From: Bacilli bacterium
Lineage (GTDB): Bacteria; Bacillota_I; Bacilli_A; ML615J-28; CAG-698
Length of the DNA stretch: 64,000 bases
Direction: 5' to 3'
NCBI GenBank assembly: GCA_017962745.1
Contig: JAGCUR010000016.1
Coordinates: 18,757-82,756, forward strand
The stretch's first letter is position 1. Each line of letters opens with the position of its first letter. A model generated the notes under the pieces. That model had not been told where the DNA came from and made no database searches. It was given only the letters and a program-made list of their open reading frames with translations. This document shows positions 19,512 through 36,556 of the stretch, piece after piece. Position numbers and translations under genes: made by a program.

Positions 19512-21421
19512 TACATACCACCAAGTCCTGTCTTATCGATACCTTGAACGAACCATTTTTGTAATACGAAGTATAAAAGTAGTAATGGTAAAATACTGAT
19601 CAAAGTACCTGCCATATAAACGGCATCATTTAATTTATCGGTATAACTACTGCTTTGTCCCGCGGACGCATATACTGATCTATACGATTCCGCAAACCTC
19701 GATAGCTGCATTGGTAGCGTCGATGAGTTAGCAATGTATAGTGATGTTAAATATGTTTCATTCCAATACCATACAAAACTAAAGATAAACGCTACGATGA
19801 AGATGGTAGATGAAAGTGGAATCGCTACTCTAAAGAATATTTTAAAGCGACCAGCACCATCTAGCATCGCTGCTTCATCTAATTCTACCGGTAACATAAT
19901 AAAGAATTCGTAGAACAATAAGATAAATATGGCATTCTTTAAACCTTGCGCAAAGGTTGCTGGCAATGCAAATGTTAAGATAGATCCAAGTAAGCCAAGC
20001 TTACTATAAGTAACATAGGTTGGAATCATTAAAATTTGCGATGGAATAATAAATGAAGCAATTATTAAACCAAATACTGCCTTTTTACCTTTGAATTTAA
20101 ACTTAGCTAGGCCGTAACCAACTAGGGATGTTGATGCCACTTGTAAAAGTGTTGGCACTAAAGCATATAGTACTGACTGGCCTAAAGCTTTAAAGAAACC
20201 AATTGTCTTAAAGGCCTTCACGAAGTTTTGGAAATATAACTTCGTTGGTATTAAATTAACTGATGGATTTAAAACATCATCAGGCGATTGTAAACTAATT
20301 AATAACATATAAATAAATGGATATAAGAAAGCGAAGCTCATTACACCAAGTAAAACATATGTAAATATCTTTACAATAATACCATCCGATAAGTTACGTC
20401 CTAAAACGATACGTTTAATCTTCTTTCCTTTTGGAGTTGAATTAAAGAAGTTAGGTTGCAAATCATATCTCTTAGTTGTTGTGAAGTATCCTTCAATTGA
20501 ACCATATTTCTTCTCTTTCTTTCTAAATTTACCAAAGAAGATTAAGAATAATATGGCAATTATAATCGCTAAAGCAAGGAAGTATAACCAAGCTAAAGCT
20601 GATGAGAAACCAAATCCTTTACCAATTTGCGTATCAAACATACAATTCTTGATAACATTGATAACGCCATTGTTATCAAATGTTGCTAGCAAGATAAATG
20701 TATATACTAAATTGATAAAAATCGCTGTCTTTAGTGAAGGTAGGGTTATTTTCCAGAATTGTTCCCAGACACTTGCCCCATCCATTTGACTAGCTTCGTA
20801 CATGCTCTTATCTAGTTTTTGAAGCACTGTTAAATAAACGATTAACTGTACGCCACTAAACCAGAACATATAAACTAAGTTTTGGAATGTCCTAACGATA
20901 AAGTTAGATACGGTAGCTCCTAGGGTAGTTCCGATTAAGTTAACAATACCAAAATCACCAATAGTACTCATTACAATAACGTTTTTATCTACTAGTTCGC
21001 TCATTACCGGTCCTGATACGATAACTACTGGTAAGAAGAATATCGTTCTAAAGAATCCTCTTCCTTTAATATTACCGTTTAGGATAACCGCAAATAATAC
21101 CGCGAAGACGTTAATAATAAATACCATTATTAAGCTTTCTTTTAAGAAACTTAGTAATGCTTGAATCATCGTACGATCGGTAGTAAAAGCTGTTTGGTAA
21201 TTACCAACGCCAATCCAATCAGTTAAAATACCATCAGCACTAATTGTTACTTTATTAAAGCTTAAGAATAATGAATAAATCATCGGAAAGGCACCGAATA
21301 CCAAAAAACCAATTATCCAAGGACTAACGAATGCTAAACCAGCTAAGTTATCACGCTGAGCATTGTTTAGTCTTTTCTTTTGTTTCATTGGGGCATTAGA
21401 TAATACTTTTGTTTCTTCCAT
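19511..21421 (-). CDS. Fused carbohydrate ABC permease (MalF-like + MalG-like)
   Basis: Two EAA motifs (MYEASQMDGAS and ELDEAAMLDGAG) in one 636-aa ORF; junction near 20500. Confidence 0.9.
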   Translation of the reverse strand: MEETKVLSNAPMKQKKRLNNAQRDNLAGLAFVSPWIIGFLVFGAFPMIYSLFLSFNKVTISADGILTDWIGVGNYQTAFTTDRTMIQALLSFLKESLIMVFIINVFAVLFAVILNGNIKGRGFFRTIFFLPVVIVSGPVMSELVDKNVIVMSTIGDFGIVNLIGTTLGATVSNFIVRTFQNLVYMFWFSGVQLIVYLTVLQKLDKSMYEASQMDGASVWEQFWKITLPSLKTAIFINLVYTFILLATFDNNGVINVIKNCMFDTQIGKGFGFSSALAWLYFLALAIIIAILFLIFFGKFRKKEKKYGSIEGYFTTTKRYDLQPNFFNSTPKGKKIKRIVLGRNLSDGIIVKIFTYVLLGVMSFAFLYPFIYMLLISLQSPDDVLNPSVNLIPTKLYFQNFVKAFKTIGFFKALGQSVLYALVPTLLQVASTSLVGYGLAKFKFKGKKAVFGLIIASFIIPSQILMIPTYVTYSKLGLLGSILTFALPATFAQGLKNAIFILLFYEFFIMLPVELDEAAMLDGAGRFKIFFRVAIPLSSTIFIVAFIFSFVWYWNETYLTSLYIANSSTLPMQLSRFAESYRSVYASAGQSSSYTDKLNDAVYMAGTLISILPLLLLYFVLQKWFVQGIDKTGLGGM

Positions 21422-23578
21422 CTATGCCACCTTATAACTTCTAGCATTCACTAAAAGCCCTTCATAATTATATTCATTATTAGTATAGTTAACGATTATG
21501 CGCTTACCATTGCTATAATCAACTACGCTTATTCCTTCACTTGGAATAATACGATTAACAATAGTTGCCCCGCTCACTTGATTAAGTACACTACTAATCA
21601 TTACATATTGTTCTTTGATCATATCAGCTACAGAATCATAATATGTAGCATAATAATCACTAGATAAAGTATTTGATAATAAGTAACTTGGTTGCTTACT
21701 AATTAAATATGCTGGACTTACACCATATTCAATACACTTCAAAACATCTAAATCGATGTTTGAAGAAAAGTTTAGATAAGGTGAATAATAATCAATATAT
21801 CCTTTAAGTAAGATTTCTAAGAACGGAACGGAATCCGTTACAAATCTTGTTCTTTCCGAATATAGTGGCATATTTAAATATTTTGATGTATTAGCTAAGA
21901 AATAATAATTAGGTTTATACATTGGTAGTTTATCTTCCCCTAACAGGCCAGAATATGTTGCTAACATTTCACTTCTTGTTAATTTATTATTCTTATCACC
22001 ATATAAACGGTATCCAATTCCATCTAAAGCAATCCTACCATCATATTTATCAACTGCTTTTAAAGTATATTTCACTACATCTTTCGCATTAGCATAAAAC
22101 TTATATTTATTGGCTTCCACCGCAATATAATTCTTTTCATTATATAAGTTAACTAATACTTTATTTGGATAACTCTTCTTTGAGTTATAACTTTCCACTG
22201 GATTATAGTAGAAATATGCTTCTAAATCTTTCAAATCATGCATTGAACCAAGTTTTCCATCAAACTTATAATTCTTAACGCTTTGGTTTGAATAACCTTT
22301 TTTATTAAATGCACGTAAAGTATAGAAAATATTATTAACTCCACCTTCTTCTAAATCTTCATTAATATGAATGATATCTTTAGTAGTAGTCATATTTTTA
22401 TACTTTTTAAAGATTAAACCTTTTTCATAATCACGGCCAAATGCTTCAATTTGGATATCTATTGGATTAGAATCGCTATTTCTTTGTAAAATACCATCTT
22501 CGATTAAAGTATTTCTATAAGCTTCTGCCATTCCTAGATAATTAGCTTTTTCATCAGATAAGAATGTATATTCAATTTCCATATCCACATCATAATTATT
22601 TTCCGGAATCATTAATATTTGATCAGATCCAGGGATTGATAAATAATAAATCTCACGCGTATTAAATGTAGTGTAGATGAAATTAAATCCTTGATCGATG
22701 TTAGCTGGACTATATGTAAGAGTGGTGAATGCTTCACCGCTTTTAATATTTACAAGCATCGCATTTTGATTTACACCATGACATAAGCCATAAATCGGTA
22801 AGCTCAATACTTCATTTTCCGTATTTTTAGAAATATTAGCATCAGTTCCATAAAACTTAGCAGAATATGTAGATGTGATTGGGGAAGTTGATGAATATCT
22901 AACTAGGGCGCCACTTCCTGATGGTAAAAATACATAACCAGGAATGTTATCTTTATAAACAGCTCCTAAATATGGAAACATCGTAATAGCAGTTAGTTTG
23001 TTTGCTCCCGTTTCACTAATTTCGCTAGCTTTAATTAAGACATCGATTGAATAATCATTTAGCGTTATTTCATAACTAAATCTAATATCTGCTTTATCTA
23101 ACAATACATTAACAGTTAGTTTATTACCACTAACAGAATCTGTAAGTTTTGCTGCAGTATCTGCCGCATATACATCTTTTACATTACCATCTTCATTACG
23201 GTATAAAACCTTAAAGGCAGATGTTAATCTTTTCTTTACTGCATTATTAAAGTTATAATCATCGATATTTAAAATATCGCTTGCCCATACGTAACTTGTA
23301 TCTTTATTTAAGATTCTAATAGCACCATTTGCTTTATTATAGAATAATTCTAGGTGGCTATTTTCTAATTTAGAATCAAAATCGCTTAAGTCTACTGCTC
23401 CTTGGTTATATGCAGTTTCATCATCCATATGGGTAAATAGAGATGAATCGATAAAGAATTCAGATGTATCTTGAAGCTCTTCTTCTTTAGCTTTTACTTT
23501 ATTATTATTTAGAGCAAGGAAGCATACTGTAACTAGTACAAATGAAAACAAAACGATGATTCTTAATTTTTTAATCAT
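21422..23578 (-). CDS. DUF5696-like secreted or membrane-anchored protein
   Basis: N-terminal signal/anchor; GYVFLPSGSGAL, LPIYG, YLGMAEAYR, VPFLEILLKGYIDY, YSNGKRIIVNYT motifs; sits between the Yip1 gene and permeases. Confidence 0.72.
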   Translation of the reverse strand: MIKKLRIIVLFSFVLVTVCFLALNNNKVKAKEEELQDTSEFFIDSSLFTHMDDETAYNQGAVDLSDFDSKLENSHLELFYNKANGAIRILNKDTSYVWASDILNIDDYNFNNAVKKRLTSAFKVLYRNEDGNVKDVYAADTAAKLTDSVSGNKLTVNVLLDKADIRFSYEITLNDYSIDVLIKASEISETGANKLTAITMFPYLGAVYKDNIPGYVFLPSGSGALVRYSSTSPITSTYSAKFYGTDANISKNTENEVLSLPIYGLCHGVNQNAMLVNIKSGEAFTTLTYSPANIDQGFNFIYTTFNTREIYYLSIPGSDQILMIPENNYDVDMEIEYTFLSDEKANYLGMAEAYRNTLIEDGILQRNSDSNPIDIQIEAFGRDYEKGLIFKKYKNMTTTKDIIHINEDLEEGGVNNIFYTLRAFNKKGYSNQSVKNYKFDGKLGSMHDLKDLEAYFYYNPVESYNSKKSYPNKVLVNLYNEKNYIAVEANKYKFYANAKDVVKYTLKAVDKYDGRIALDGIGYRLYGDKNNKLTRSEMLATYSGLLGEDKLPMYKPNYYFLANTSKYLNMPLYSERTRFVTDSVPFLEILLKGYIDYYSPYLNFSSNIDLDVLKCIEYGVSPAYLISKQPSYLLSNTLSSDYYATYYDSVADMIKEQYVMISSVLNQVSGATIVNRIIPSEGISVVDYSNGKRIIVNYTNNEYNYEGLLVNARSYKVA

Positions 23579-25617
23579 GTCCTGTACACTCCTTCCCTAA
23601 ATAGTCCGATGATGAATTGTACGAATTGCATAGTTAAGATATAGAATACTAAATATAAAAGTACCATAATCACTACTGCTACAAATGTAAGGATTACATT
23701 TAAGATAAATTCACCTAGCTTATAATTATGAATTTGGCTAATCATTATTATTAAGTTAACGAAAGACCAAGCCCATAACAATCCATTTAGTATTTGATAT
23801 AGATATCCTTCATTATAAGTTAGGAAGTTACTAATTAGATCAACTGGAATCTTAAATAAGATTATCGGTGCAAATGATACCATTGTACCAATAAAGATAT
23901 CTCTAAAGAATCCTTCACCACTTTGCAGTGTTGATACTAAATAGTTACCGATTACAAATAAGATAATTACTAGTCCCCATCTCAATAATTCAAAAGCAAA
24001 ATTCATATCTTTTACATTAGTAGATCTAAATAAGTAGCCTCTAATAAAGTAATCACCAAAGATGTTAATTAAAATAAATACAATGAATAATAACCAAGCG
24101 GTTCTCGTTCTAATCTTTAAACCAAACTTGATATCATAAAAGACATCTTTTGGCTTTCTAAAGATCTTAAGCAAATATTTTAATTCATTTATTAATTTAG
24201 AATTATTAATCTTTTCTTTAAACTTCGTTAAATCAATCTTTGTTAAGTGCCATAATCTTGAATATACGTGGAATATCTTTAATAAGATTAAGACAACTAG
24301 AACAATTATCATCCATACTAAGTTTTTATTAAACCAGTCATCTCTTAATTCCCAATATACTTCACTATAACCCGATTTATAATTAGCTAGTTTAAAGTAT
24401 TCAATTGCTTTATCATAATCTTCTAATCTTTGGGCAATTTTACCTAAGCCAATATAAGCACTTACAAAACTAGCACTTTGGCGTAATATTTCTTCATATG
24501 CGCTAGTTGCTGCTTCATAATCACCTTCATTATATGCAAGAATTGCTTTAGTGACTGTACTAGCAAATGATGTTTTACGGAAGACTTGAATGTTCTTTCC
24601 GCCACCATCTAATACCCAAATATTAAAGTTAGAATCAACAGCGATACCTTTTGCACTATCGAATTCACCGATCAAGCTCGATCCTGATTTTGTGGAACCA
24701 AAGGAGAAAAGTAGGCTTCCTTCGGGATCCATTACTTGGATAACCCCTTCGCTTGAAGCATCAACTGTATAAATAAAGCCATTATTATCAACCGTAATAT
24801 CTTTGTATGATGTAGAGAAGAATGATGCTTTGGCTAAAACATTAGTACCACTAATGTTATATTTTTTAAGACTCGTTCCTGTCTCACCATCAATTACAGT
24901 ATAGACGATATTCTTTTTATCGATCGCTAAGTTAGTTGTTGCTTTTGGTGCTAAAGATGCATAAGTTTCGCGGTCTTCTTTGGATAAGAATAAACGTTTA
25001 ATAAATAATGATGCAGTTAACTTTACATTATTTGGACCAAAATAGCCCATGAATTCACCATCGCTATTTAGTTGGATAATACCAGTTGAGTTACCTTCAC
25101 TCGTAATGAAAATATTACCGTTCTTATCTACCACTACTTTTGTTGGACGGTACTGGCTATCTTCCCCAAATAAAGCTTCTGTTGGACGGCCAAACTCGCG
25201 TAAAAGCGTACCCGCGTTATCAAATTTATAAACGCTCTTTTCATCAGCTACGAAAATATTGCCATCACTATCAGTACATACTCCTTGCGGACTAGAAAGG
25301 GTTCCTTCCCCAATCGTTGTAACATTAGCCGTAGCTATTTCGTAGCGGTATACTACTTTTGCTCCCTTATCCGCAATAAAGGCAATATCGTTATTATCGA
25401 TATAAATATCTTGCGGATTAGTTAGCCCAATATTAATTACATTAACACCTTCATATGCTAGTGGCGAAATTGCAAGTTCGCCATCTAGGCCAACCGCATA
25501 TGTATTATATGGGTTCGAATTGATTTCGCTTTTTGCGACTACTTTTAAGTTAAATGCTAATAGGCAAATGCAGAATACTACTAGTACCATTAGTATTCTA
25601 GTTATCATTTTCTTCAT
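23575..25617 (-). CDS. NHL-repeat / TPR / Yip1-domain membrane protein
   Basis: Signal peptide; NHL repeats (LTNPQDIYID, LSSPQGVCTDSDGNIFVAD, AKGIAVDSNFNIWVLD); TPR (AYIGLGKIAQRLEDYDKAIEYF); multi-TM Yip1-like C-terminus. Confidence 0.78.
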   Translation of the reverse strand: MKKMITRILMVLVVFCICLLAFNLKVVAKSEINSNPYNTYAVGLDGELAISPLAYEGVNVINIGLTNPQDIYIDNNDIAFIADKGAKVVYRYEIATANVTTIGEGTLSSPQGVCTDSDGNIFVADEKSVYKFDNAGTLLREFGRPTEALFGEDSQYRPTKVVVDKNGNIFITSEGNSTGIIQLNSDGEFMGYFGPNNVKLTASLFIKRLFLSKEDRETYASLAPKATTNLAIDKKNIVYTVIDGETGTSLKKYNISGTNVLAKASFFSTSYKDITVDNNGFIYTVDASSEGVIQVMDPEGSLLFSFGSTKSGSSLIGEFDSAKGIAVDSNFNIWVLDGGGKNIQVFRKTSFASTVTKAILAYNEGDYEAATSAYEEILRQSASFVSAYIGLGKIAQRLEDYDKAIEYFKLANYKSGYSEVYWELRDDWFNKNLVWMIIVLVVLILLKIFHVYSRLWHLTKIDLTKFKEKINNSKLINELKYLLKIFRKPKDVFYDIKFGLKIRTRTAWLLFIVFILINIFGDYFIRGYLFRSTNVKDMNFAFELLRWGLVIILFVIGNYLVSTLQSGEGFFRDIFIGTMVSFAPIILFKIPVDLISNFLTYNEGYLYQILNGLLWAWSFVNLIIMISQIHNYKLGEFILNVILTFVAVVIMVLLYLVFYILTMQFVQFIIGLFREGVYRT

Positions 25618-26489
25618 TATTTAATACCTGAATGAGACATAGTGTCCATAACCTTCGATTGTAAGAAGATAAAGATGACTAAATTTGGTACGAATATAAT
25701 CAACGCTGCAGCTGCACTTACACCAGCTCCACTAATACTATTAGAAGCATTAGTTAGAGTTGATAAGTAGTATGCAAATGTTTGAAATTCTTCTTGGTTA
25801 ACATATAAATTAGATGTTTCCGTATTATTCCATGCTGTCTGGAAGGCTAGAATTGCTACCGTTACTAAGGCTGGCTTAATTAATGGTAAGATTATCTTCG
25901 TATAAATGAAGAAATCACCAGCACCATCCATCTTAGCGGCTTCAATTAATTCATTTGGCACTTCATCAATAAATTGTTTTACTAAGAATAGTCCTACTGG
26001 AATAGCAAGTAATGGTAAGATGTGCGCCCATAAAGTATTAATAATACCAATCTTTGAGATAATTAAGAATCTTGGAATTATTACCGCACAGCTTACGAAC
26101 ATCATTGATAAAGTATTGATTTCGAATAATACTGATTTTAGTTTAAACTTCTTCTTTGATAAGATGTAACCAGCCATTGAAGATATCAAAACTGATAGGG
26201 CCGTTACCGCTAAAGTAACAATAATACTATTGATTAAATAACGATAAATCGGCAGGCCAGTTGAACCACTTCTTTGGAATAGATCCACGAAGTTACCAAA
26301 TGTCGGGTTACGTACAAAGAATTTTGGTGGGAATTCTAACAACTCATCTAATGGTTTAAAGGCTGATACAAACAAATAAATGATTGGTAAAGCCATAAAC
26401 GCAGCTAGTGGGACGATGATGATGTAGAACTTGATTTGATCTTTAGTAAAACGTTTAGGGTTGAACTTTGTTCCGGTATTATTTCTCAT
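25617..26489 (-). CDS. Carbohydrate ABC transporter permease (MalG-like)
   Basis: [27 protein letters not shown] motif, 6 TM helices. Confidence 0.92.
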
Positions 26490-27469
26490 CGTTTTTTACC
26501 CCCTTTCTTTTCACGAAAGACGCTAGTAAAAATACGATTGAAGATGTACACGATTATTAGTAAGATTACTGATAATGCGGCACTCATACCTAGTTCTTTT
26601 CTTAAAACGCCATAGTCATCGATGTGGTTAACAACAAGTTGGCCAGCATTTTGTGGAGTTGGGTTCGAACCAGATAGCTGAACACCAATGGCTCCGGAAC
26701 TAAATGCCCCTACAATTGCCATAACGGCACCGAATAACATTTGTGATTTCATATTTGGAATCGTAATATAGAATATTTCTTGAACACGGTTTCTAACTCC
26801 ATCAATGGCAGCTGCTTCGTATTGTTCTTGATCTACATTAAGTAAACCAGATAACATGGCAAGGAATCCTATACCCATACTACTCCATAAAGTTACCATC
26901 ATCATAACTGGCATTAAGTATTCAGGTGACTGTAACCACTGAACTGGTTCAGTTATAATACTCATGTTTAATAATATTGAGTTTAAGTAACCTTGTTCAT
27001 CACCACTAAAGATAATCTTCCATAGAACTGTCATAGCGACACCTGATGTCATTGATGGTGAATAAATAATTAAAGCTAATACAGTTCTAGCACCTTTTTG
27101 GATTTGTGATAAAATCCAAGCTAAAATAAATGAAAGTACATATCCACCAGGACCAACTACTAAAGCAAATACCAATGTATTTGGTAAAATTGTCTTCATG
27201 AAGTCAGAATCTTGCGTGAATAAATATACATAGTTATCTAGCCCTACAAATTCTGGTTTTGAAATACCATTATAATATGTAAAGCTAAAGATAATCGCTA
27301 CGATTATTGGTAGCACAATAAATACGATAAACATTAAAACATATGGGAATAAGAAAATAATACTAGTTCGATTGCCTTTATCCATCCATTGGCTAATCTT
27401 ATCACCCATATTCTGGAAGAACTTTTTAACTTTCTTAAGGAAAGGTTGCTTTTCTACACTATTTTCCAT
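26486..27469 (-). CDS. Carbohydrate ABC transporter permease (MalF-like)
   Basis: [20 protein letters not shown] motif; probable start ATG 27469. Confidence 0.92.
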
Positions 27470-27471
27470 AA

Positions 27472-30411
27472 TTAGCCTCTTTCCTGCCAAGACTTAATTT
27501 CTTCAAGGGATGGAACCTTGTAAGGTTTTAAAACATTACCGTCTTTATCTAAATATTTAAATTCTATCATCTTACGCTTAATCTCACGGTTTATTTCTAA
27601 TGAATAATCCGTAACTGCTGCTCTTACTGATACCGTGTTAAATACACATGAATTCCATGCATTAGAAATTCCACGTTCGATCATGTAAGTAGCTGGTGTT
27701 TGAGGAACTTGATATAAGTATTCCCATTGATCTAAGATGACTTGTTTATCTTCTTCTGGGATCGCTAGCGTCTTAAATGCTTCAAGATTAGCAGTATTCC
27801 ATAAGAATAACTGACCATAAGTAGCTTGGATTCCGGCCGCAAACCTTGTTTGCGTTTCGGTAGATAACCACCACTTCAAGAAATCCCAAGCTTGATCTTT
27901 TTTCTTTGACTTTTCAAAAATTACAACTGTTTTAGAATCAGCAGTTTGGGTTCTATTGATGTATTCATCTTCAGTTCCTTCATTATATTTAACACCAGGT
28001 GTTAATGTAATACCCCATTTACCTACAATTTCCGGAGCAGCATGAGTTAATTGTAAATAAGTATCGAAGTTAGCAATACCAACTGGACTCATACCATTTC
28101 TAAAATCGTTATAGAAGTTTTGGGTTGTAAGTGGAAGCGAATAAATCGTGAATAAATCAACCATCATTGTCATCGCTTGAATTCCTTCTGGCGTATCAAT
28201 TTCCGCTCTTAGGAAATCATCGCTATAAATATTGCATCCATATTGATAATAGAATGCGGAAGTGGTTCCAAGTGATTTTAAACCTGCTCCACCGGCCATT
28301 GGCATATAGAAATTCATTCCATAACGCTGCAAAGTAGGTAACATTCCGATAATATCTTCGTAAGTTTCTGGAATTTCTAAGCCAATCTTATCTAAAATAT
28401 CTTTTCGATAAAATAGAACTTGGAAATCTTGCGTTTCTGGTAAGCCGTATACTTTTTCACCTTCAATAAAACTAATTAGTGAACCTGGTGACATCGTCTT
28501 AATCGTTGTATAGAACCCGTCCATACTCCTAAGATCGGCTAGAGCCCCTCTAATACCTAATGTATAAGGAACCCCTGATCCAACCCCAATTGCCGCATCA
28601 GGTTGCGTATTAGAGGCATTAGCATATGTTAGTTTAGATTCATCAGGAAGTAAGCTTAGTCTTACTTTAATACCACTTGTTGGTGTATAGTAAGCATCTG
28701 CGAACTGTTGAAGAAGGGAAACATAATATGTTGAACGATTCATCCAAATAGTTACGCAATCTTTATCAGCTGCATCTACTTTTGATCTAAATACTCTTTG
28801 GCTAGTCGCAAAGTACTTAACAAAGAAATTATTTCTAATCTTTGGTAGTTTTGCTTGATCCCCATAAATATAAATCTTATCGATTGATAATGGACTAAAT
28901 GTTGATGTATGAAGGGAATTACTTAGCATTAGTGATGCTGATGCAGATCCTTCATATAAAATATTTAATTTAGTCGGTAACTTATTTGGATCTTTAGCTA
29001 AAGAGACAATCTTTTTGTATGCATTATTGATTTGTTGATACAAACGATTCTCTTTTTTCGGATTAGACATACTATATTTACTAACATATTCAAGTAAATC
29101 TTCTAATCTTTCTTTCCAATTGTTAAGTCTAGTTCTAGCAGTTGGAATAAAAGCATCGATATTCCAAGTCTTGTTCTTATCGCTATTACCACCAGTTAAC
29201 TTAATAATTTCTAGATATAATTCATTTATTTCATTAATTAAGCTAACAAGTTCATAATAAATTGGTGCTTGATAAGATGCATCAAGTTGGAATGTTAAGA
29301 AATGTTCACCTTCAGTGAAGTAAAAATACATGTCTTCATCGTTATTATTAAGTATTTCATAATCGTAAGAACCTTTACGATTATTTAAATTGTTTTTAAA
29401 ACAATATCTATTTAAGTTATCATATAAAACAACATTATCTAATAATATTTTTGAATAAATTGATGTAAATGTTTGGGAAATATAATACTTAATAGCAATT
29501 TTATAATAACCAGCTTCATTTACTTTAAAAGCATAAGTAATACTATTACCAGATTGATTGAATGAATCACCTGATAAGTTGTTTAACTTATTCTTTGAAG
29601 TTGAAAATGGTGTTAAATGTGGCATCTGACTAGATGTAGCAGAAATATCAGGAGATGATTTATAAGTAGGCTCTTCTCCTTCTAAAACTATCATCTTGTC
29701 GCTTGATGCTACATTATTTGGTTTTTCATAATTACTGTAAGAACTCTTTCCAAAAATATAAATATCACCAAGTAGTAAATCACCTGTAGCTTTTTCGATT
29801 TCAATCGTATGAGCTCCACTAGTTAGATAAATTGACATCGGTGTATCGTTATAATAACGTTGGTCGTATAAGAAATACTTGCTCCAAACATCATATCTAA
29901 CTTGCATTTGATTTACTTCATTTTGGTAAATATCATATACTTCCTCTCTTGAAGAGTCCGTCCAATATGTCGGTAAGCAGGCATTGGCATAATCATCGTT
30001 GTTTACGCCATCCACTCTTACGTTAACAGTAATATCTTGGACATCGTTTTGTAGAGACTTGTAATCTAGAGCTAGCTCGTATTCATCACTAGTCGCTACA
30101 TTTATATTAAAAGTAATGATATCATCACCAGACCAACGATATACTTTTTTACCGTATTCTTCATCATCTAGTAAGTTTGCTTCATCAATCACTGTATTAA
30201 TTTCAACTTTTTGATAATTCCTCTCTTCATCAAACGAAAGTAAGGTAGTATGAGCAGGGAACAAGTTGCTCCCTTGCTCATCTTTACTCACGTTAACAAA
30301 AAATGAAATTATAATTAATAAAAGATTTATTAAAGCAAAGACGAGAAAGAATCGTATAAAATACTTTTTAATCATCGCTCCGGTAATTTTACCTTTTAAC
30401 TTGAGAGCCAT
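27472..30411 (-). CDS. Large (979 aa) extracellular solute-binding protein with N-terminal CBM-like domains
   Basis: N-terminal TM anchor; two beta-sandwich segments (FNINVATSDEYELALDY, FKVNEAGYYKIAIKY); helical linker; family-1 SBP domain (YGLPETQDFQVLFYRKD, AWDFLKWW). Confidence 0.85.
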   Translation of the reverse strand: MALKLKGKITGAMIKKYFIRFFLVFALINLLLIIISFFVNVSKDEQGSNLFPAHTTLLSFDEERNYQKVEINTVIDEANLLDDEEYGKKVYRWSGDDIITFNINVATSDEYELALDYKSLQNDVQDITVNVRVDGVNNDDYANACLPTYWTDSSREEVYDIYQNEVNQMQVRYDVWSKYFLYDQRYYNDTPMSIYLTSGAHTIEIEKATGDLLLGDIYIFGKSSYSNYEKPNNVASSDKMIVLEGEEPTYKSSPDISATSSQMPHLTPFSTSKNKLNNLSGDSFNQSGNSITYAFKVNEAGYYKIAIKYYISQTFTSIYSKILLDNVVLYDNLNRYCFKNNLNNRKGSYDYEILNNNDEDMYFYFTEGEHFLTFQLDASYQAPIYYELVSLINEINELYLEIIKLTGGNSDKNKTWNIDAFIPTARTRLNNWKERLEDLLEYVSKYSMSNPKKENRLYQQINNAYKKIVSLAKDPNKLPTKLNILYEGSASASLMLSNSLHTSTFSPLSIDKIYIYGDQAKLPKIRNNFFVKYFATSQRVFRSKVDAADKDCVTIWMNRSTYYVSLLQQFADAYYTPTSGIKVRLSLLPDESKLTYANASNTQPDAAIGVGSGVPYTLGIRGALADLRSMDGFYTTIKTMSPGSLISFIEGEKVYGLPETQDFQVLFYRKDILDKIGLEIPETYEDIIGMLPTLQRYGMNFYMPMAGGAGLKSLGTTSAFYYQYGCNIYSDDFLRAEIDTPEGIQAMTMMVDLFTIYSLPLTTQNFYNDFRNGMSPVGIANFDTYLQLTHAAPEIVGKWGITLTPGVKYNEGTEDEYINRTQTADSKTVVIFEKSKKKDQAWDFLKWWLSTETQTRFAAGIQATYGQLFLWNTANLEAFKTLAIPEEDKQVILDQWEYLYQVPQTPATYMIERGISNAWNSCVFNTVSVRAAVTDYSLEINREIKRKMIEFKYLDKDGNVLKPYKVPSLEEIKSWQERG

Positions 30412-30461: not shown

Positions 30462-31973
30462 TTAATATTCTAATCCCATTGAAGCATAGTCATCAGCAAC
30501 AAGCTTATTGATCTTGTCATTTAATTCTTTAGTCATATAGTTAATATAATCATTAATTGAAATCTTGCCTTCGCAAGTATCCCATACTAAGTCACCAATT
30601 GTTAGAAGATTACCTTCTCTAACACCTTCAATTGAAATACCAGTGTTAAATGTATATCTTGCTTTTAAGAAGCCAGGAACTGTCTTATTACCTTCAACGA
30701 TAACTTCTACTTTTCCCGCATTAACTGCATCAAATGTTTCTTGTAAACCTTTCATCTTAATGTATGAGAACCATTTAGTAGAGATTTCTGGTTTTGTATT
30801 TAGTGGAATACAAGTTAAAGATAAACCTGCATCTGGGTTTTGATCTAAAATATCGAACATTGCTTGAGCGCCTTCAGCACCGAATGTCATATATTTTGCA
30901 ACTTCATAAGCAGCTTCAGCGTGTTTTGTGCTCTTAGAAATACATATGAAGTCAGTAGCAGCTGTTACTTTTCCGTTAGGATATGAAGTAAATGTGCAAT
31001 CGAAATCAACATTTTCATATGTTCCAGCCCAAGAACCTTCTTGGATGAAGCCCATTCTACCAGCGATAAATACATCGCTTGGAGAACCTGGACCTAAAAT
31101 TAAAGATCTATATTCTTCGGCGTCTTCTCCTTCACCGACTGTTGCTGGAATTGAGTTATAAACATATTGGCTTTGTGGATCGCCTAAATCAGCAATAACT
31201 CTTAAAGCATCAAGTAATGCTTCACTTCTGAAATCAAATTCATGACCATTCCAAGTAAAGTGTTTAGTTCTACCAGTTGTATCGAATGTAGCAGGAAGCC
31301 AGTTGATCATATCACCAACAGCGTTCATACCGATAACACCAGTTCCATCCATATGGTTAATATCTTTCATTGATTTAACTACATTAATCCATTGTTCAGT
31401 AGTGAATTCACCAGGTGCGAATAATTCTTCTGCACTCTTGTCACCAGTTAGATAATCATCGATTAAATCTAAGTTAGCAAATAATCCCATGTAGTATTGA
31501 CCAGCAGGAACTGCATAGATCTTATCATTGTAAGTAATTGAATCTCTTAAAGCAACTGGAATATCTGTCCATTCGCTATCGGCTTTAGCAAGGCTAGTAA
31601 TATCCATTGCCCATTGGTTAATAACAGCACTAGGTACGCTATTAACAAAGAATACATCAGGAAGTTCGCCTGAAGCAGCCATTGTAGCTAAGAATTCATC
31701 ATAACCAGAGCCATCTACTGGAACTACCATTTCAATACGAATAGTGCTTGATGCTTTATTAAAAGCTTCAACTCTTCTTCTTGTTAAATTATTATCTTCT
31801 TCTGTACCAAAATTCCAGCTACAGAATGTTACGACTGTCTTACGTGTTTTACCACCGCCACCGCCTTGGCTTCCGCCGCCGCCTTCATTTCCGCCTTCTC
31901 CACAAGCGAATAGAATTAAACTAAATAGGCAAATAAATACTGCCATTACAATTGTTAAGAATCTTTTTTTCAT
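30462..31973 (-). CDS. Sugar ABC transporter solute-binding lipoprotein
   Basis: Lipobox LFAC and Gly-rich linker; ASGELPDVF, KIYAVP, KHAEAAYEVAKYM. Confidence 0.88.
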   Translation of the reverse strand: MKKRFLTIVMAVFICLFSLILFACGEGGNEGGGGSQGGGGGKTRKTVVTFCSWNFGTEEDNNLTRRRVEAFNKASSTIRIEMVVPVDGSGYDEFLATMAASGELPDVFFVNSVPSAVINQWAMDITSLAKADSEWTDIPVALRDSITYNDKIYAVPAGQYYMGLFANLDLIDDYLTGDKSAEELFAPGEFTTEQWINVVKSMKDINHMDGTGVIGMNAVGDMINWLPATFDTTGRTKHFTWNGHEFDFRSEALLDALRVIADLGDPQSQYVYNSIPATVGEGEDAEEYRSLILGPGSPSDVFIAGRMGFIQEGSWAGTYENVDFDCTFTSYPNGKVTAATDFICISKSTKHAEAAYEVAKYMTFGAEGAQAMFDILDQNPDAGLSLTCIPLNTKPEISTKWFSYIKMKGLQETFDAVNAGKVEVIVEGNKTVPGFLKARYTFNTGISIEGVREGNLLTIGDLVWDTCEGKISINDYINYMTKELNDKINKLVADDYASMGLEY

Positions 31974-34900
31974 TTTTCTTCTCCTTTTATAAAATTCAAT
32001 TTTTCTAAAGCCTTCTTAGTCATATCACAACACATGAAATACTTCCAAACCGTCTCATTTTGATAATTATCTAACATGATAATGGTTGGACCTTTATCAA
32101 TACCAATATAGCAATCACTAATATAGCCACTATCTAGGTTATATGAATCACATAACCCATATTTTTTATTTAATCCTTCAATTGTATTAAAATATTCTAA
32201 TGCTTTTAAGGATTCTTTTGGCGTAAATACAATACTTGATAGAGCTGCATAAGGAGCAACACTACCATCTAATTCTTGCTCAATTGGTTTACCAAAGCCC
32301 CAAGGTGGTGCTCCAAATACCTTATAACACTTTTCTCCTTGAAATGCGGTTAAGCCCCAAGAGTTTTCCCCATATGATTTAGACCATGTTTGATCGATAC
32401 AATATTCTCGATTTGCAAGGGTTGCTTCAACCGAATTTTTAAACCAATCAATATTATCATCGGTTTTTAGATTTCTAAAATCGATAAAACAGTGACTAAA
32501 CTGATGGATGAATAAGGCATTTGTGTAACAATGAATTAATTCATCACCTTTATATTTACCAATGTGCCTTGTAAACCCATGATATAAATCTAGCGAGTCT
32601 TGCTTACTTGTATCATCTTTAGCCGCATACAAGTAATACATCATCAATTGTTCTGCGTAATGATTCCAAGTCGCTGGACAATACCCATTATTTTCTTGCC
32701 AAATATGATTTGAATAAGCCATCTTAATTACTTTCTTGCCATTTTCTAAAGTAACAAAGTGATCCCAGTCAACTCGATTGACTAAATACTTAACATCTTT
32801 TTCAATATCACCTTTAAAGTAACTTGCTGCTGTGATTGCCCCCATTAATAAAATGGCGGTATCGATTGTAGAAAACTCACTATTTTGATTTTCCCCCGTA
32901 ACTGGATCCACAAAGTGTGGTAACAATCCATGGAAATCTTCAATCTTTAATATTGAATCAATGGTATTCCTTACAATCTTTCTTGCTTCATCTTGACTAA
33001 TTAGGTTTCTACTTGCCGCTACTACCATCGCTGCTAGTTCAAAACCAACGCCTGCTGTAGAACAGCGGTATCTTTTCGATGTTGCAAAGATTTTATCAAG
33101 GGTTAAGCCATTTTCTCCTGATTCACCTAAGAAAAAATCTAAGCATCCTTTAATTTCTTTATTGATCAATTCATTTTCTAAATAAACATCAATAACTGTA
33201 CTATCTTTAATTAATGATTTATCAAATACAAAGCCACCATTTCGATAATGGTTAGTTGCATCTTGATATTTTATCTCTTTACCATTTATTAATAATTTCT
33301 TCTTAGTTTGATTTAGATGATAATGAATTAATACATCTTTATCGTTTATTTGATAATTGAGGCTAAAATCTCCTAAATAACTAGGAATTAGCGGATCCAT
33401 AATAACTTGTTTTGCTTCTTCTTTAATTCCTAAGAAATTAGTAATTAAATTATTTAAATAAATTCCTGGGCCACTTGAATATACTCGCCAGCCACCTTTA
33501 ACGCCCACTTCACCATTTTTTAGTTTATTAAAATTAGCAATTGCATCATATCTAGTATTAAAGCAACCATCGCTACTACTAAAATATGAATTTCTTTGGC
33601 GCGGTAAAGCATTTTTAACTACATCCGTTACAATGATTGGATTAATCTTTTTAAGTCCATCATAGAAATGACATGATAAACCTAATTTATGCATTGCTTC
33701 TAAATATCTTACATTAGCATGACAATACTGAAGTCCAATTTCTCTACCAAAGTTAGCAGCAGTTTCTGCACGGTTGAAATAAGTTTTAATTCCGCCATTA
33801 TACTTAACAGCATCACTCATCAACCTTACGCCATCTGGAAACATCAAATTATCATCGATAATCTTAGCGCATCTAATCGCTTGATCATAATCAAACATTT
33901 CGCTAATGATTCCTCTAGTCAGAGGCAGCAAACGATACTTAATGCCACTAGCTTGATCTGATGGATGAAGGATGTATTCAATTCCTTCATTTCTAAAATG
34001 AATGAATCCAGCTGGCACTCCATCTTTAAAGACTAATTTGTTGTAGTCTTCTTTAATGCCACTAGCAAGTTTTGATAATCTAATCGATAATTTCGAATCT
34101 ACTTCGCTTAAAGAAAGAGATAATTTCTTAAATGCTTCATAAGTTAGACATGTTGTCCAACCTGATACCATTTCTTTCTTATGGTCGCTATTAGCAGGCT
34201 GAAGTGTATCATCCCAGTCACCACCACCATAACAAGATAGTTTAGTACCATTTATGAAATTAGCTTCAATTGTATCTATTTCTTTTATTAAATGATCTTT
34301 AATGCTATAAGCTTCAGTATATTTAATACCTTCGCGACTAGTATATGGTACTTTCTCATCTAGAATCGCAAAATCATCAGTTGCTTCTAAATATTTAGCT
34401 AGTAACATTGCTGGCCATACGATAACATCCCCATGGCTTGATAAGTCTTGAATGTTATAAAACTTATCAAACATAAACCATTGAGGGAAATTACCATTTT
34501 CAATATATTGGTGCTTATAAACATCTAAAATGATGTTTTTAGCACTACCAAACTTATGCATACTTAAGAATAGTTCGGCTGGGCCTTGGCAAACATCTCT
34601 AGTTCCCCATGCAGCACCACTATATTGTTCTAGTCCATGCGGAGTGAGATAATGACACATCGCATCATGATAATACCAATATACTAAATAATTTAATGAT
34701 TCTAACTCTTTAACCCCTTCAATATTAAAGCCATTAACAAACTTTTTAGCTTCAGCTAAATAGTTAGGAACTTCTTTTTCAAACTCTAAATGTTTACTAT
34801 CGGTAAAACTGCTACCAATAAATAACTTAAAGTTATTAGAATTTAGGCTAAATGTTAATAAGTTTTCATCTCTTGATTTATTATCTAAATAAAATACGCG

Positions 34901-36472
34901 ATCATCACTTACTTCATATACTTGATTTATACCAACTTTGAAATATAAATCCGGATATCTATTATAAGTCATTGAATCTTTATCAAATAATACTTTAGTA
35001 ACTAGCTCTTCTTTTTCTATATGAATTAGACTTTCATGTTCCCTCTCACCCATAACTAAGTGATTAGTGATGATTAAATCATATTTAATTCCTTTAAGTG
35101 ATTTAAATTCCAATTCAACTTTTGATGTTTCATAACTTACATATGATTTAATTTCTAAAGTATCATCTTCAAGTTTATAAATCCATTTAAGGTAATTAAT
35201 ACCCATGATAAATACGCTCGGCATACAAAGTAGCTTGTATTTATCACCATGTTTAATAAAAATTCTTTGTCCACTAATCTTTTGTACATTCAGTGGATTT
35301 CGCAAATTACTTAATAATTTATTAAATGATGTGTTTCCACACACAACTTGTGAGTTGAACAGACCAAATATATAACCAGTTGATGCCATAACATTTTCAA
35401 AATCATAAGTAACATCATTAAACTTGTTTTGACTGTAAATTATATTGCCACTAGGTCGCTCTAAATATTTTTCTTTATGATTTAAAACAACATGCGCTTT
35501 ATTATCTAGAAAGAATGATGCTAATATTCCATCGATTCTTTCTTCTAAGCATCGATTAGGAAATAAATCTTTAACTTCTTCTTCATCTAAATCTTTACCG
35601 TTTAGATAATCTAGATAACTGATCTTTAAATCTAGACTAGAATATTTATCTTCTTCAAAAATATATTTTCTATTTTCGACTTTTTTATAAAGTTCTTTAA
35701 CTTGATCTTTATATAAAGGTTTAGAAATAGCTTCTGGATGCCTATCGCTATAATATGAATAAAATACTATTCTTTTTGCTTCTTCTAAATCAACTTTTTC
35801 ACTTTGAATTGCATGATATGCAAATTCATATTGATAAATTTCGCTATCTAGCTTTGGTTTAGATAAGCTAACTGGTAAGTTAGTAAATTTATAATCTTTA
35901 CCAAAGAATTGAAAACCATCGATATCATAACTAACATTTTTAGAAAGCGTTGATGTTTCAAGATATAAGCTATCACCTTGGTTTTGACGTGAACATAAAG
36001 TATAGCCATCATCATCTAAATATGCTTTATGATCAATATATTGTGATACATATGCTTCATTATTAGAGATCGCATAAATATTACTAATTGATACATCTAA
36101 ACCATAAAATACTTCTACTATTTTACCTTTAGCTTCACTTAATCTGACATCAAATAGTAAAGCGTTTTCAATAATTGAAAAAATAATATGGTACGATACA
36201 CCTTCAAAACTACCTTTATATACGACATAATTATTAATATCATCGTTAGTAAAAATTACTTTTGTTGGCGAATCAATACCAATCATTCTAGAATATTTAC
36301 CATCTACTCTAATGAATAAGTTAGCAACTGATGGTTCTAAGTTGTTACCAACATATGTATTGATGCGGTTTATTCCGCTTCTAATTTCTTGGATATTACC
36401 ACTTTCTAAGATCTTAGCATTAAGAAATTCACTACCAATAACATACGTTTTGATTTGATTTTTCGGAAACAT
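31970..36472 (-). CDS. Fusion of GH94 1,2-beta-oligoglucan phosphorylase (SOGP-like, aa 1-~1097) and a GH144 glucoamylase-type domain (aa ~1100-1500)
   Basis: GH94: HGLEQYSGAAWGTRDVCQGP, GDWDDTLQP, GREIGLQY, GGWRVYSSGPG. GH144: STAGVGFEL, HGLLPHF, EFSTIDTA, YAEQLMMY, LFIHQFSH, IGIDKG. No signal peptide; one continuous ORF. Confidence 0.87.
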   Translation of the reverse strand: MFPKNQIKTYVIGSEFLNAKILESGNIQEIRSGINRINTYVGNNLEPSVANLFIRVDGKYSRMIGIDSPTKVIFTNDDINNYVVYKGSFEGVSYHIIFSIIENALLFDVRLSEAKGKIVEVFYGLDVSISNIYAISNNEAYVSQYIDHKAYLDDDGYTLCSRQNQGDSLYLETSTLSKNVSYDIDGFQFFGKDYKFTNLPVSLSKPKLDSEIYQYEFAYHAIQSEKVDLEEAKRIVFYSYYSDRHPEAISKPLYKDQVKELYKKVENRKYIFEEDKYSSLDLKISYLDYLNGKDLDEEEVKDLFPNRCLEERIDGILASFFLDNKAHVVLNHKEKYLERPSGNIIYSQNKFNDVTYDFENVMASTGYIFGLFNSQVVCGNTSFNKLLSNLRNPLNVQKISGQRIFIKHGDKYKLLCMPSVFIMGINYLKWIYKLEDDTLEIKSYVSYETSKVELEFKSLKGIKYDLIITNHLVMGEREHESLIHIEKEELVTKVLFDKDSMTYNRYPDLYFKVGINQVYEVSDDRVFYLDNKSRDENLLTFSLNSNNFKLFIGSSFTDSKHLEFEKEVPNYLAEAKKFVNGFNIEGVKELESLNYLVYWYYHDAMCHYLTPHGLEQYSGAAWGTRDVCQGPAELFLSMHKFGSAKNIILDVYKHQYIENGNFPQWFMFDKFYNIQDLSSHGDVIVWPAMLLAKYLEATDDFAILDEKVPYTSREGIKYTEAYSIKDHLIKEIDTIEANFINGTKLSCYGGGDWDDTLQPANSDHKKEMVSGWTTCLTYEAFKKLSLSLSEVDSKLSIRLSKLASGIKEDYNKLVFKDGVPAGFIHFRNEGIEYILHPSDQASGIKYRLLPLTRGIISEMFDYDQAIRCAKIIDDNLMFPDGVRLMSDAVKYNGGIKTYFNRAETAANFGREIGLQYCHANVRYLEAMHKLGLSCHFYDGLKKINPIIVTDVVKNALPRQRNSYFSSSDGCFNTRYDAIANFNKLKNGEVGVKGGWRVYSSGPGIYLNNLITNFLGIKEEAKQVIMDPLIPSYLGDFSLNYQINDKDVLIHYHLNQTKKKLLINGKEIKYQDATNHYRNGGFVFDKSLIKDSTVIDVYLENELINKEIKGCLDFFLGESGENGLTLDKIFATSKRYRCSTAGVGFELAAMVVAASRNLISQDEARKIVRNTIDSILKIEDFHGLLPHFVDPVTGENQNSEFSTIDTAILLMGAITAASYFKGDIEKDVKYLVNRVDWDHFVTLENGKKVIKMAYSNHIWQENNGYCPATWNHYAEQLMMYYLYAAKDDTSKQDSLDLYHGFTRHIGKYKGDELIHCYTNALFIHQFSHCFIDFRNLKTDDNIDWFKNSVEATLANREYCIDQTWSKSYGENSWGLTAFQGEKCYKVFGAPPWGFGKPIEQELDGSVAPYAALSSIVFTPKESLKALEYFNTIEGLNKKYGLCDSYNLDSGYISDCYIGIDKGPTIIMLDNYQNETVWKYFMCCDMTKKALEKLNFIKGEEK

Positions 36473-36485: not shown

Positions 36486-36556
36486 AGTAAACGTTTTACT
36501 GAATCGTTTCAATAACTATACATATGCATTGTATCATACTGAAACGTTTTTGTAAA
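36486..36556 (-). promoter_or_regulatory. Promoter and three LacI-type operators of the glucan operon
   Basis: TTTACA(36551-56)-17 nt-TACAAT(36528-33) with extended TG; CG-centred sites AGTAAACGTTTTACT (36486-500), TGAATCGTTTCA (36500-11), TGAAACGTTTTT (36540-51). Confidence 0.78.

Follow-up and report, generated by a model that had tools for sequence, protein, structure and literature searches.

[quoted passage not shown] The product is best explained as a cytoplasmic two-enzyme protein for beta-1,2-glucan catabolism, probably encoded in a LacI-controlled operon and acting together with glucan import and ring opening; we put the probability of this reading at about 0.6. The window, which is the whole stretch of 64,000 nucleotides that was analysed, holds the fusion and its parts at the following positions.

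31970-36472, minus strand: fusion reading frame, GH94 SOGP plus GH144, 1500 amino acids from an ATG start in one uninterrupted frame
33179..36472, minus strand: SOGP part, amino acids 1-1098 (Pfam, PDB 5H3Z, residue table, fold match)
33170..33178, minus strand: junction ENE, three residues between the final beta-strand of SOGP and the first helix of GH144 (alignment, codons, AlphaFold model)
31970..33169, minus strand: GH144 domain, amino acids 1102-1500 (Pfam, PDB, residue alignment, fold match)

The initial annotation had described one 1500-residue frame in which a SOGP-like protein with the motif GDWDDTLQP (amino acids 751-759) passes near nt 33180 into a GH144-type domain, and this layout was borne out in each point. 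The profile check of domain boundaries that it had proposed placed SOGP_N at amino acids 21-238, SOGP_2nd at 304-550, Glyco_hydro_94 at 674-952 and SOGP_4th at 1015-1093 (four SOGP/GH94 domains over 21-1093), followed by Glycoamylase PF10091 at 1268-1482. By sequence, LpSOGP (PDB 5H3Z) was matched across amino acids 27-1092 (E 2e-234) and the GH144 enzyme XcSGL (8XUL) across 1112-1495 (E 1.5e-37), followed by CpSGL and other GH144 entries. The SOGP part comprises Ndom1, Ndom2, an (alpha/alpha)6 GH94 catalytic barrel and a C-terminal beta-sheet domain, and its fold matched 5H3Z with Z 33.2 (rmsd 2.5, 456 aligned). Pfam gave no glycosyltransferase family match in the fusion, and neither a transmembrane stretch nor a signal-like N-terminus was found in it (maximum 19-aa hydropathy 1.33).

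The junction reads IDVYL-ENE-LINKEIKG around nt 33180, has no stop codon and joins the two parts without a flexible linker; unfused SOGPs stop and unfused GH144s start at this same point. In an AlphaFold model of amino acids 575-1500, built on a 57-row alignment (a single-sequence run with mean pLDDT 33 was discarded), strand 518-525 of the model continues into helix 527-543 with pLDDT 82-98. The pTM of 0.86 suggests that the domains are held in a fixed mutual orientation.

The search for other GH94-GH144 fusions advised by the initial annotation yielded 12 further 90%-clusters, 51-97% identical to the window protein; one of them (P0012) is a single sequence from a single contig and the 11 others come from several sources. 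Reads across 33100-33250 had also been named as a check, and no stop or frameshift was seen there: in the related loci L043, L019 and L045 the frame stays open across the junction, and a contig of run X9 that covers 32618-33403 differs by 28 substitutions but is free of gaps. Among the contigs listed for runs X3, X4 and X15 none bridges the junction, as they have holes or end nearby. The dN/dS of the GH144 part was 0.020 against L043, 0.094 against L019 and 0.244 against L045, at or below the value of the SOGP part in each pair, and the GH144 part is under strong purifying selection. Separately, a one-base deletion at 33344 was observed in one X4 contig (depth 3.6 of 11.6); most X4 records fit only partly, and the deletion was treated as noise or another organism.

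The N-terminal part is a complete GH94 SOGP as judged by its domain layout and its predicted catalytic and phosphate residues. The catalytic acid D755 (nt 34208-34210) is the equivalent of LpSOGP D760, and 14 of the 15 LpSOGP substrate and phosphate residues, whose roles are known from PMC5309861, are identical in all 13 fusions. R625, D626, W753, D755, E911, Y916, H918, S999 and S1000, each present in 13/13 fusions, correspond to LpSOGP R630, D631, W758, D760, E917, Y922, H924, S1005 and S1006 (catalytic acid, subsite -1/phosphate), the numbering being transferred by hand from the printed alignment and PMC5309861. Seven of the eight beta-1,2 acceptor residues (N138, Y141, Q621, G623, A626, R907, R916 and Y1004 in LpSOGP numbering) are likewise identical in 13/13. 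The eighth position, G623, which gives space at subsite +2, holds Ser in seven fusions and Asn in six; since Gly is found in only 6 of 50 aligned SOGPs, this replacement is probably tolerated.

The general acid of the GH144 part is E1274 (nt 32651-32653) and the candidate base is D1204 (nt 32861-32863). E1274, F1321 and Y1383 form the clan triad (XcSGL E239, F286 and Y367) and D1204 is the acidic residue at the position of CpSGL E142; these residues were assigned by hand from the PDB alignment and PMC12102758, which describes the roles of the GH144 and SGL-clan residues. The case of a C-terminal domain devoid of catalytic residues, raised by the initial annotation, was looked at, and acid, base and clan residues were found invariant in 57/57 rows. 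All seven PDB sequence matches to amino acids 1112-1498 are XcSGL, CpSGL, BDI_3064 or their 'putative glucoamylase' relatives, and at E<=1e-3 only GH144 entries were matched. The fold comparison gave Z 46.5-49.7 against GH144 entries (24-34% identity), Z 46.1 against the GH189 domain 8WY1 (rmsd 2.3, 371 aligned, 19% identity) and Z 38.5, 37.1 and 29.5 against other clan members. The domain belongs to GH144 rather than to GH162, GH189 or GH192-194.

The fusion gene is probably the first of a LacI-controlled operon with the following elements.

36528..36556, minus strand: sigma-70-like promoter (TTTACA, 17 nt, TACAAT, extended TG) ahead of the fusion gene (consensus scan)
36500..36511, unstranded: palindrome TGAAACGATTCA in the interval from promoter to start codon, a probable operator of the LacI family
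30462..31973, minus strand: solute-binding lipoprotein (SBP), putatively of Chy400_4166 type (best PDB match 22HH)
19511..30411, minus strand: uptake cassette (Pfam/NCBIfam, PDB, order as in relatives)
18177..19511, minus strand: stand-alone GH144, surface lipoprotein with hydrophobic signal and Cys (N-terminal hydropathy 3.63)
16034..18169, minus strand: GH3 beta-glucosidase without a signal-like N-terminus (Pfam; hydropathy 0.87)
13189..16011, minus strand: 940-aa surface lipoprotein with Listeria-Bacteroides repeats (Pfam; homologues in related clusters)
12082..13071, minus strand: regulator of the LacI family at the cluster end (Pfam/NCBIfam)

Sigma-70-like sites are not enriched (23 found, shuffle mean 36.1), and the location and hexamers of the promoter are similar in related loci. 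The palindrome TGAAACGATTCA occurs once in the whole window, and its motif is also found upstream of the SOGP gene in L019, L021, L044 and L045; it was not found in L043 and L061, whose sequences end before the SOGP gene start. From the form of the motif we take it to be a LacI-family operator, and together with the LacI gene at the cluster end this makes the assignment probable. A degenerate operator pattern gave 11 sites against a mean of 3.8, an excess which is not independent evidence because the pattern was designed from the same region. The SBP start overlaps the fusion stop by 4 nt, and the uptake cassette encodes a protein of 979 aa whose C-terminal domain is of SBP type, two permeases, an NHL/TPR membrane protein, a DUF5696 protein and a fused double permease. 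The stand-alone GH144 has XcSGL as best match (E 2e-62). The GH3 protein, with Lin1840 among its PDB matches (E 1e-142) though not the top one, probably hydrolyses sophorose, which SOGP cannot use, and the 940-aa lipoprotein is possibly involved in glucan capture. Elsewhere in the genome, four MalK-type OB-domain matches and one PGM/PMM match were found.

The SBP matched 22HH with E 2.9e-48 (runner-up 2.3e-5). By mapping residues by hand, its W53, N54, W315, D341, E427 and K430 were equated with Chy400_4166 W74, N75, W308, D336, E415 and K419; all four unit-G residues (W74, W308, D336 and K419) are thus kept, and Tyr stands at W429. Chy400_4166 W292 and W446, which are thought to orient or fit cyclic forms (PMC13731917), are replaced by Ser and a non-aromatic residue in gappy regions of the phmmer alignment, and Thr stands at E430. 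The Listeria oligosaccharide binder Lin1841 is absent from the six PDB matches of the SBP. The protein is predicted to bind beta-1,2-glucans, both rings and linear chains, in the manner of Chy400_4166, as an endo-binding, ten-glucose-unit type.

On these grounds the following route may be proposed. The SBP would capture cyclic or long linear beta-1,2-glucans for import by the ABC system, presumably powered by a MalK-type ATPase encoded elsewhere. The GH144 barrel, assigned by family and catalytic residues, would, if active and endo-acting, cut internal beta-1,2 bonds, opening rings and creating new non-reducing ends. The SOGP part, by analogy of its family and residues with LpSOGP, would act phosphorolytically on the non-reducing end of chains of at least three glucoses, releasing alpha-glucose 1-phosphate (Glc-1-P). 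GH3 would split the left-over sophorose, and a phosphoglucomutase-family protein encoded elsewhere presumably takes Glc-1-P. The cytoplasmic bifunctional enzyme of the initial annotation is thus supported by sequence features, with no signal or transmembrane stretch and both sets of catalytic residues intact. Also in favour of it are the retention of the fusion in 12 clusters, the low GH144 dN/dS, the split genes in the same order, the adjoining 22HH-like SBP, the MalK and PGM matches and the analogous enzyme logic proposed for Chloroflexus aurantiacus. On the other hand, the surface lipoprotein GH144 of the operon could cut glucans before uptake, and import of intact glucans hence stays an inferred step. 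The SBP replacements at W292, W446 and E430 and the Ser or Asn at G623 also speak against this reading, most SOGP loci of this type manage without fusion, and a 1:1 fusion is not obviously optimal because extra endo-cuts would lower the Glc-1-P yield.

The fused domain and the stand-alone GH144 at 18177-19511 show 34% identity across 411 aligned columns (E 4e-66) and have YAEQLMMY, QFSH and GIDKG in common, as the initial annotation had seen; the paralogy it proposed holds, but as a distant one, between separate GH144 sub-lineages. Origin by local duplication of the lipoprotein gene was rejected because of this difference in sub-lineage. The fused domain lies within a lineage of signal-less GH144s encoded directly behind unfused SOGP genes in relatives; its closest relatives are single-domain proteins of 400-430 aa, and a signal-like N-terminus is absent in 49/49 of the closest full-length stand-alone ones, as in the fusion. 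Separate SOGP, GH144 and SBP genes in the same order are found in L021 (with an 8-nt overlap) and L061, GH144 directly follows SOGP in L127, and in most SOGP loci of this type the genes are separate. Such adjacency makes it plausible that the fusion formed in place from neighbouring genes through loss of the intervening stop, the direction being deduced. The trees require two events, which may be a pair of fusions or a fusion plus a split. The clade test relied on leaves out P0013, a protein of 1073 aa on a 3569-nt contig which is probably cut short; an earlier test (p-AU 3e-76), in which P0013 was taken as unfused, was set aside. The fusion would provide a fixed 1:1 ratio and co-location, and channelling is not required.

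Among other explanations, the one that survives best, although unlikely, is that both domains are active in the cytoplasm but only linearised oligomers are imported, the gene merger being near-neutral. Here the lipoprotein GH144 would open rings outside the cell, and the fused GH144 would trim imported chains of at least five glucoses or cut behind decorated or branched residues which stall the exo-acting SOGP. The surface lipoprotein in the same operon, the SBP without W292 and W446 and the separate genes in most related loci agree with it; moreover, SGL-clan enzymes require filled subsites -3 to +2 (PMC12102758), and therefore medium chains would be substrates. However, an SBP of the endo-binding, ten-glucose-unit type, without Lin1841 among its matches, argues against it, and the strong conservation of the signal-less GH144 lineage agrees with an essential role, for instance in ring opening.

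A doubtful extension of our preferred reading is a natural ring-opening 'cyclic beta-1,2-glucan phosphorylase' with direct handover. A rigidly docked GH144 would make about one cut per ring and pass the fresh non-reducing end to the SOGP site, converting nearly all of an intact imported cyclic glucan to Glc-1-P. In relatives, the separately encoded partners would assemble into this complex without a covalent link, and this would be the reason for two fusions.

It is improbable that the GH144 part acts as an exo-enzyme which, like BDI_3064, releases sophorose, and that the protein makes or tunes a sophorose or short-oligomer pool, e.g. as LacI inducer, with SOGP running in either direction. Such an exo-type GH144 member exists (PMC11842490), sophorose has been made in vitro from Glc-1-P by SOGP and BDI_3064 combined in one pot (PMC11975218), and the modelled fixed orientation would in principle allow the SOGP to close off the GH144 cleft. 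But BDI_3064 is the weakest and the endo-enzyme XcSGL the strongest of the seven PDB matches, the closest relatives are single-domain proteins, and exo release would bypass the phosphorylase, since SOGP does not phosphorolyse sophorose (PMC5309861).

Glucan synthesis, which the initial annotation already held to be less likely, is very improbable, even though the SOGP reaction is reversible and the GH144 fold is nearly as close to GH189 8WY1 as to GH144 entries. The position of the GH189 nucleophile Glu is occupied by Ala1376 in 57/57 rows, placed by the Trp-Gly motif anchor against a 2924-aa PF10091-bearing frame of genome G246, as the HMM alignment is gapped in this loop. In this G246 cyclic glucan synthase (Cgs), Glu lies four residues past the conserved Trp-Gly and Tyr 14 residues further, the spacing of E1442/Y1456 in TiCGS (PMC10834661). 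Furthermore, by sequence the domain matches only GH144 entries (E<=1e-3), the fusion has no transmembrane stretch, its context is an importer and GH3, and no Cgs was found in the source genome. A plasmid search for a Cgs for comparison gave only stand-alone GH144s, and the fetched region H30 had no annotated Cgs.

There is equally little to be expected of a non-catalytic glucan-binding barrel feeding the SOGP. The first GH144 helices of the window protein deviate from the consensus of the group (e.g. FFLGESG for FFWNESG), and the SGL-clan protein PgSGL4 is inactive on beta-1,2-glucan though its group keeps the clan residues; however, PgSGL4 is without the equivalent of the acidic base which the fusion has, acid and base are invariant, and purifying selection is strong. 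An assembly or frameshift artefact, conceivable from the one-base frame offset between the two genes in relatives and the single source of P0012, is refuted for the window protein by independent contigs reading through the junction and by 11 more fused clusters of several sources, and its probability is negligible.

The GH94-GH144 fusion looks undescribed: NCBIfam has no family for it and no description was found in the literature. The pathway it serves is known, and because the concept of cytosolic SGL, SOGP and importer is in print for C. aurantiacus, its novelty is lower than the initial annotation held. No new chemistry is involved, as the two folds, the two reactions and the logic of the pathway were known before. 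The fusion nevertheless connects SOGP metabolism in the cytoplasm with a signal-less GH144 lineage that is large and uncharacterised, and makes whole import and internal opening of cyclic beta-1,2-glucans, for which PMC13731917 has a proposal only, directly testable. In addition, it suggests that gut bacteria with small genomes scavenge the glucans of other bacteria. For the production of defined sophoro-oligosaccharides, one polypeptide having both activities may be of use, since SOGP and GH144 enzymes have already been combined in vitro.

In comparison with LpSOGP (5H3Z) and Listeria innocua Lin1839 (GH94, EC 2.4.1.333), the fusion has the same four domains including the extra N-terminal beta-sandwich, the catalytic Asp, the residues of subsites -1, +1 and +2 and of the phosphate site, and GH3, ABC importer and LacI neighbours. 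Characterised SOGPs are stand-alone proteins of ~1100 aa, whereas the fusion adds a 400-aa C-terminal GH144 barrel and has Ser or Asn at G623. With the GH144 endo-beta-1,2-glucanases XcSGL (8XUL) and CpSGL (5GZH/5GZK) it shares the (alpha/alpha)6 barrel (Z 47.8-49.1), acid E1274, base D1204 and clan residues F1321 and Y1383, and, like XcSGL, it carries Ser where CpSGL has D139; unlike them it is fused, has no signal peptide and belongs to an uncharacterised lineage (26-34% identity in structural alignment).

Cgs also carries an SGL-clan barrel and GH94 in one chain, but in the order GT, cyclase, GH94, whereas the fusion begins with GH94, of SOGP type, lacks the nucleophile Glu as well as any GT or membrane part, and stands in a degradative context. 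The two are independent pairings of the same folds. The opposite domain order given in the initial annotation stands, while its domain names are superseded, the middle domain being now GH189 and the N-terminal one GT2 (PMC11842490). GH3-GH144 fusions (~1170 aa), most of the 120 long matches listed in the homologue search, similarly combine a GH144 barrel with an exo-acting enzyme for the same polymer, the partner being a hydrolase and not a phosphorylase. The C. aurantiacus cluster Chy400_4165-4178 (PMC13731917) has a cyclic-glucan-binding SBP, a putative SOGP, GH3, two ABC sets and two GH144s, one with and one without a signal peptide, and cytosolic degradation by SGL and SOGP with a cyclic-glucan importer was proposed for it in 2026. 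There, SOGP and cytosolic SGL are encoded by two genes and the cluster also contains a GH35 transglycosylase, whereas in the present small-genome, Bacilli-like gut organism the two enzymes are found in one polypeptide.

The protein of 1500 aa is encoded by a single 1500-codon frame (31970-36472, minus strand), as the initial annotation had proposed, and its host genome of 1.54 Mb is 97% complete. Four SOGP domains (aa 21-1093) and PF10091 (aa 1268-1482) were identified by Pfam. In comparison with solved structures, aa 27-1092 matched LpSOGP (5H3Z, E 2e-234) and aa 1112-1498 matched seven GH144-type sequences, of which XcSGL (8XUL, E 1.5e-37) was the best. The fused domain has 34% identity with the stand-alone lipoprotein GH144 (18177-19511), and the three motifs that had been noticed as common to the two are indeed present in both. 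The whole host genome holds exactly two PF10091 matches and one GH94 match, and hence no cyclic glucan synthase (Cgs) was found among these matches across the genome. Apart from the position of LpSOGP G623, all features tested place the fusion in GH94 (SOGP group) and in GH144, and not among Cgs proteins. In the model of aa 575-1500 (57-row alignment, mean pLDDT 82.6, pTM 0.86), the last SOGP strand continues directly into the first GH144 helix, and the fold matches 5H3Z (Z 33.2), the GH144 entries (Z 46.5-49.7) and, just below these, GH189 (46.1). The high pTM suggests a fixed SOGP-GH144 orientation, with the caveat that no more than 12 alignment rows span both domains, that the model leaves out the two N-terminal domains and that several SOGP loops have pLDDT below 50.

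Other fusions of this kind were sought with the whole-length protein, which matched 1060 proteins of 825-2625 aa, and 12 were present in the best 120 listed (1488-1512 aa, 51-97% identity, 99-100% of the query), the other 108 being SOGPs of 1049-1131 aa. A search with the GH144 part among proteins of 708-2020 aa brought up those 12 again, and the best 120 of its 184 matches included no further SOGP fusion. In an exhaustive search of aa 575-1500 against 50%-identity representatives, only cluster P0011 spans both parts among the 150 of 3375 matches listed. Within the reach of these listings, the fusion thus occurs in a single narrow group only. Eight of the 57 genomes of the window's family have a match and 10 of the 106 genomes of its order match the C-terminal query, the fused frame being found in the same two each time (G000 and G001); the loci lists from separate searches overlap and the counts were not summed. 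No stop or frameshift interrupts the junction, and the related loci L043 (99% identical), L019 (80%) and L045 are in frame through it. About half of the sequence words or more were found in four sequencing runs from two studies (two possible source runs excluded), the richest runs being gut and bovine-gut metagenomes. Of four runs compared across the junction, one, X9, has a contig that bridges it (32618-33403; 28 substitutions, gap-free). An artefactual fusion is, in our judgement, next to impossible.

The residue numbering of the published enzymes was placed on the fusion by hand using the printed alignments. The LpSOGP pair W758/D760 is conserved in the fusions, and 14 of the 15 further residues named in PMC5309861 are identical in 13/13 fusions; at the remaining position, G623, the fusions have Ser or Asn, as do most aligned SOGPs (Gly in 6/50). 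According to PMC12102758, the clan is defined by XcSGL E239, F286 and Y367, and the likeliest base is the residue corresponding to CpSGL E142; the equivalent E1274, F1321, Y1383 and D1204 are invariant in 57/57 rows (12 fused and 45 stand-alone). Both active sites therefore look intact at the level of sequence. The dN/dS values of the GH144 part and the SOGP catalytic part are 0.020 and 0.050 against L043, 0.094 and 0.179 against L019, and 0.244 and 0.252 against L045, a pair near saturation. With the spacing of TiCGS E1442 and Y1456 (PMC10834661) as reference, the GH189 nucleophile is missing at the Trp-Gly-anchored position, which is Ala in 57/57 rows. Elsewhere in the window's class, a 2924-aa frame with a PF10091 match (G246:C1, locus L144, 2.0-Mb genome) has Glu four residues past the Trp-Gly motif and Tyr 14 later, the same spacing as in TiCGS, and this Cgs-type nucleophile motif marks it as a possible Cgs in the window's group.

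A run of 12 co-oriented genes begins with the fusion; neighbouring genes are -19 to +50 nt apart, except for 117 nt ahead of the final LacI gene. Two elements lie upstream of it:

36556-36528, minus strand, sigma-70-like promoter
36500-36511, palindrome, kept in four related loci, the split one included

The operon is probably regulated by LacI. The SBP (30462-31973) keeps all four unit-G residues (W74, W308, D336 and K419 of Chy400_4166), and W292 and W446, proposed to fit cyclic forms, are not kept. It is followed by a second SBP-domain protein, permeases, NHL/TPR and DUF5696 proteins and the lipoprotein GH144, and further by a signal-less GH3, a surface repeat protein and LacI. There is no ATPase gene within the cluster; elsewhere in the host genome four MalK-type matches and one PGM/PMM match were found. 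The uptake cassette (19511-30411), comprising a 979-aa protein with C-terminal SBP domain, two permease pairs, the NHL/TPR membrane protein and DUF5696, recurs with its gene order unchanged in many beta-1,2-glucan loci of relatives. Its second permease pair (19511-21421) is one 636-aa protein in the window and close relatives, a second fusion within the same operon, and two genes in genomes G007, G024, G032 and G049. Immediately upstream of the operon lies a CotH-kinase-family lipoprotein with an InlB B-type repeat (36637-38133); as the SOGP genes of L019, L044, L063 and L064 likewise have CotH homologues beside them, the CotH protein may belong with these loci. The window also encodes a 2964-aa surface protein (54047-62941), in which Ig-like domains are numerous and CBM_4_9 matches weakly. 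Related clusters without the fusion mostly have the same two GH144 kinds, one with and one without signal peptide, and at the Vagococcus loci SOGP, GH3 and LacI are present with no GH144 within the stretch examined.

The domain identity, residues, selection and gene context of the fusion are direct observations, as is its missing export signal. In the likeliest account (probability about 0.6), long or cyclic glucans would be brought into the cell, the rings probably intact, and opened by an endo-acting GH144 barrel, the SOGP part would form Glc-1-P by phosphorolysis from the new non-reducing ends, and GH3 would clear sophorose, which is not phosphorolysed by LpSOGP (PMC5309861). The main rival, in which ring opening by the lipoprotein GH144 takes place outside, leaving to the fused barrel no more than the trimming or bypassing of blocked chains, is distinctly less probable and still deserves weight. 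Direct handing of fresh ends from GH144 to the SOGP site is doubtful, and an exo-acting fused GH144 that makes sophorose is unlikely. A role of the fusion in synthesis and a barrel serving as a non-catalytic module are both highly improbable.

The fusion has arisen from adjacent genes. Among the matches listed, the nearest stand-alone relatives of its GH144 domain are GH144s of 400-430 aa (up to 59% identity), which begin a few residues ahead of the LIxxEIKG motif; a hydrophobic N-terminus is missing in 49/49 of the nearest full-length ones (short fragments P0121 and P0136 left out). Unfused SOGPs end in the IDVYL-like strand found immediately before the junction. In L021, separate, adjacent SOGP and GH144 genes overlap by 8 nt, and the same SBP and cassette come next; L061 (41% identity) has the window's order of SOGP, GH144 and SBP, and in L127 GH144 directly follows SOGP. 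Of the unfused SOGPs P0014-P0050, 37 in number, 14 have a longest contig that by eye equals in length that of a listed GH144, an indirect sign of co-location. In the GH144 tree, the fused domains are nested within the signal-less lineage, across the tree from the window's lipoprotein GH144; 11 fusions form one clade (100/100), and P0012 falls together with the split P0123 and P0125 (100/99). Constraining all 12 fusions as one group was rejected (p-AU 0.008; 34 rows, P0001 omitted as a near-copy), and the SOGP tree gives the same picture. A single fusion with a later split takes as many steps as two fusions. We lean towards two separate fusions, because the P0012 junction has eight residues, with an end TKK common to the split L021 start, and that of the main clade three, and because a split needs a new stop and start; P0012 is a single sequence, and a one-base error could account for it.

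Among the matches listed, many proteins of about 1130-1190 aa (P0249-P0348, a few of them labelled Acidobacteriota or Pyrinomonadaceae) join GH3 domains to PF10091, a much commoner GH144 fusion than SOGP-GH144; with GH144 joined to GH3 in many other long proteins, this barrel has repeatedly been paired with an exo-acting enzyme. LacI-family domains are joined to a GH144 domain in P0242 (811 aa, two member sequences, one 3.3-kb contig), which may be either a genuine sensor-enzyme fusion or artefactual. The SOGP-GH144 fusion is genuine, conserved and narrowly distributed, combines two known enzymes of a known pathway and is apparently undescribed: no description was found in the main texts of the largely open-access literature searched, and such proteins could appear in the supplementary homologue lists of PMC12102758 and PMC13731917. 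In the Chloroflexus cluster, for which cytosolic degradation has already been proposed, the cytosolic SGL, putative SOGP, GH3 and cyclic-glucan SBP are separate genes (PMC13731917). The fusion would work like this cluster, with the counterparts of the cluster's SGL and SOGP in one polypeptide.
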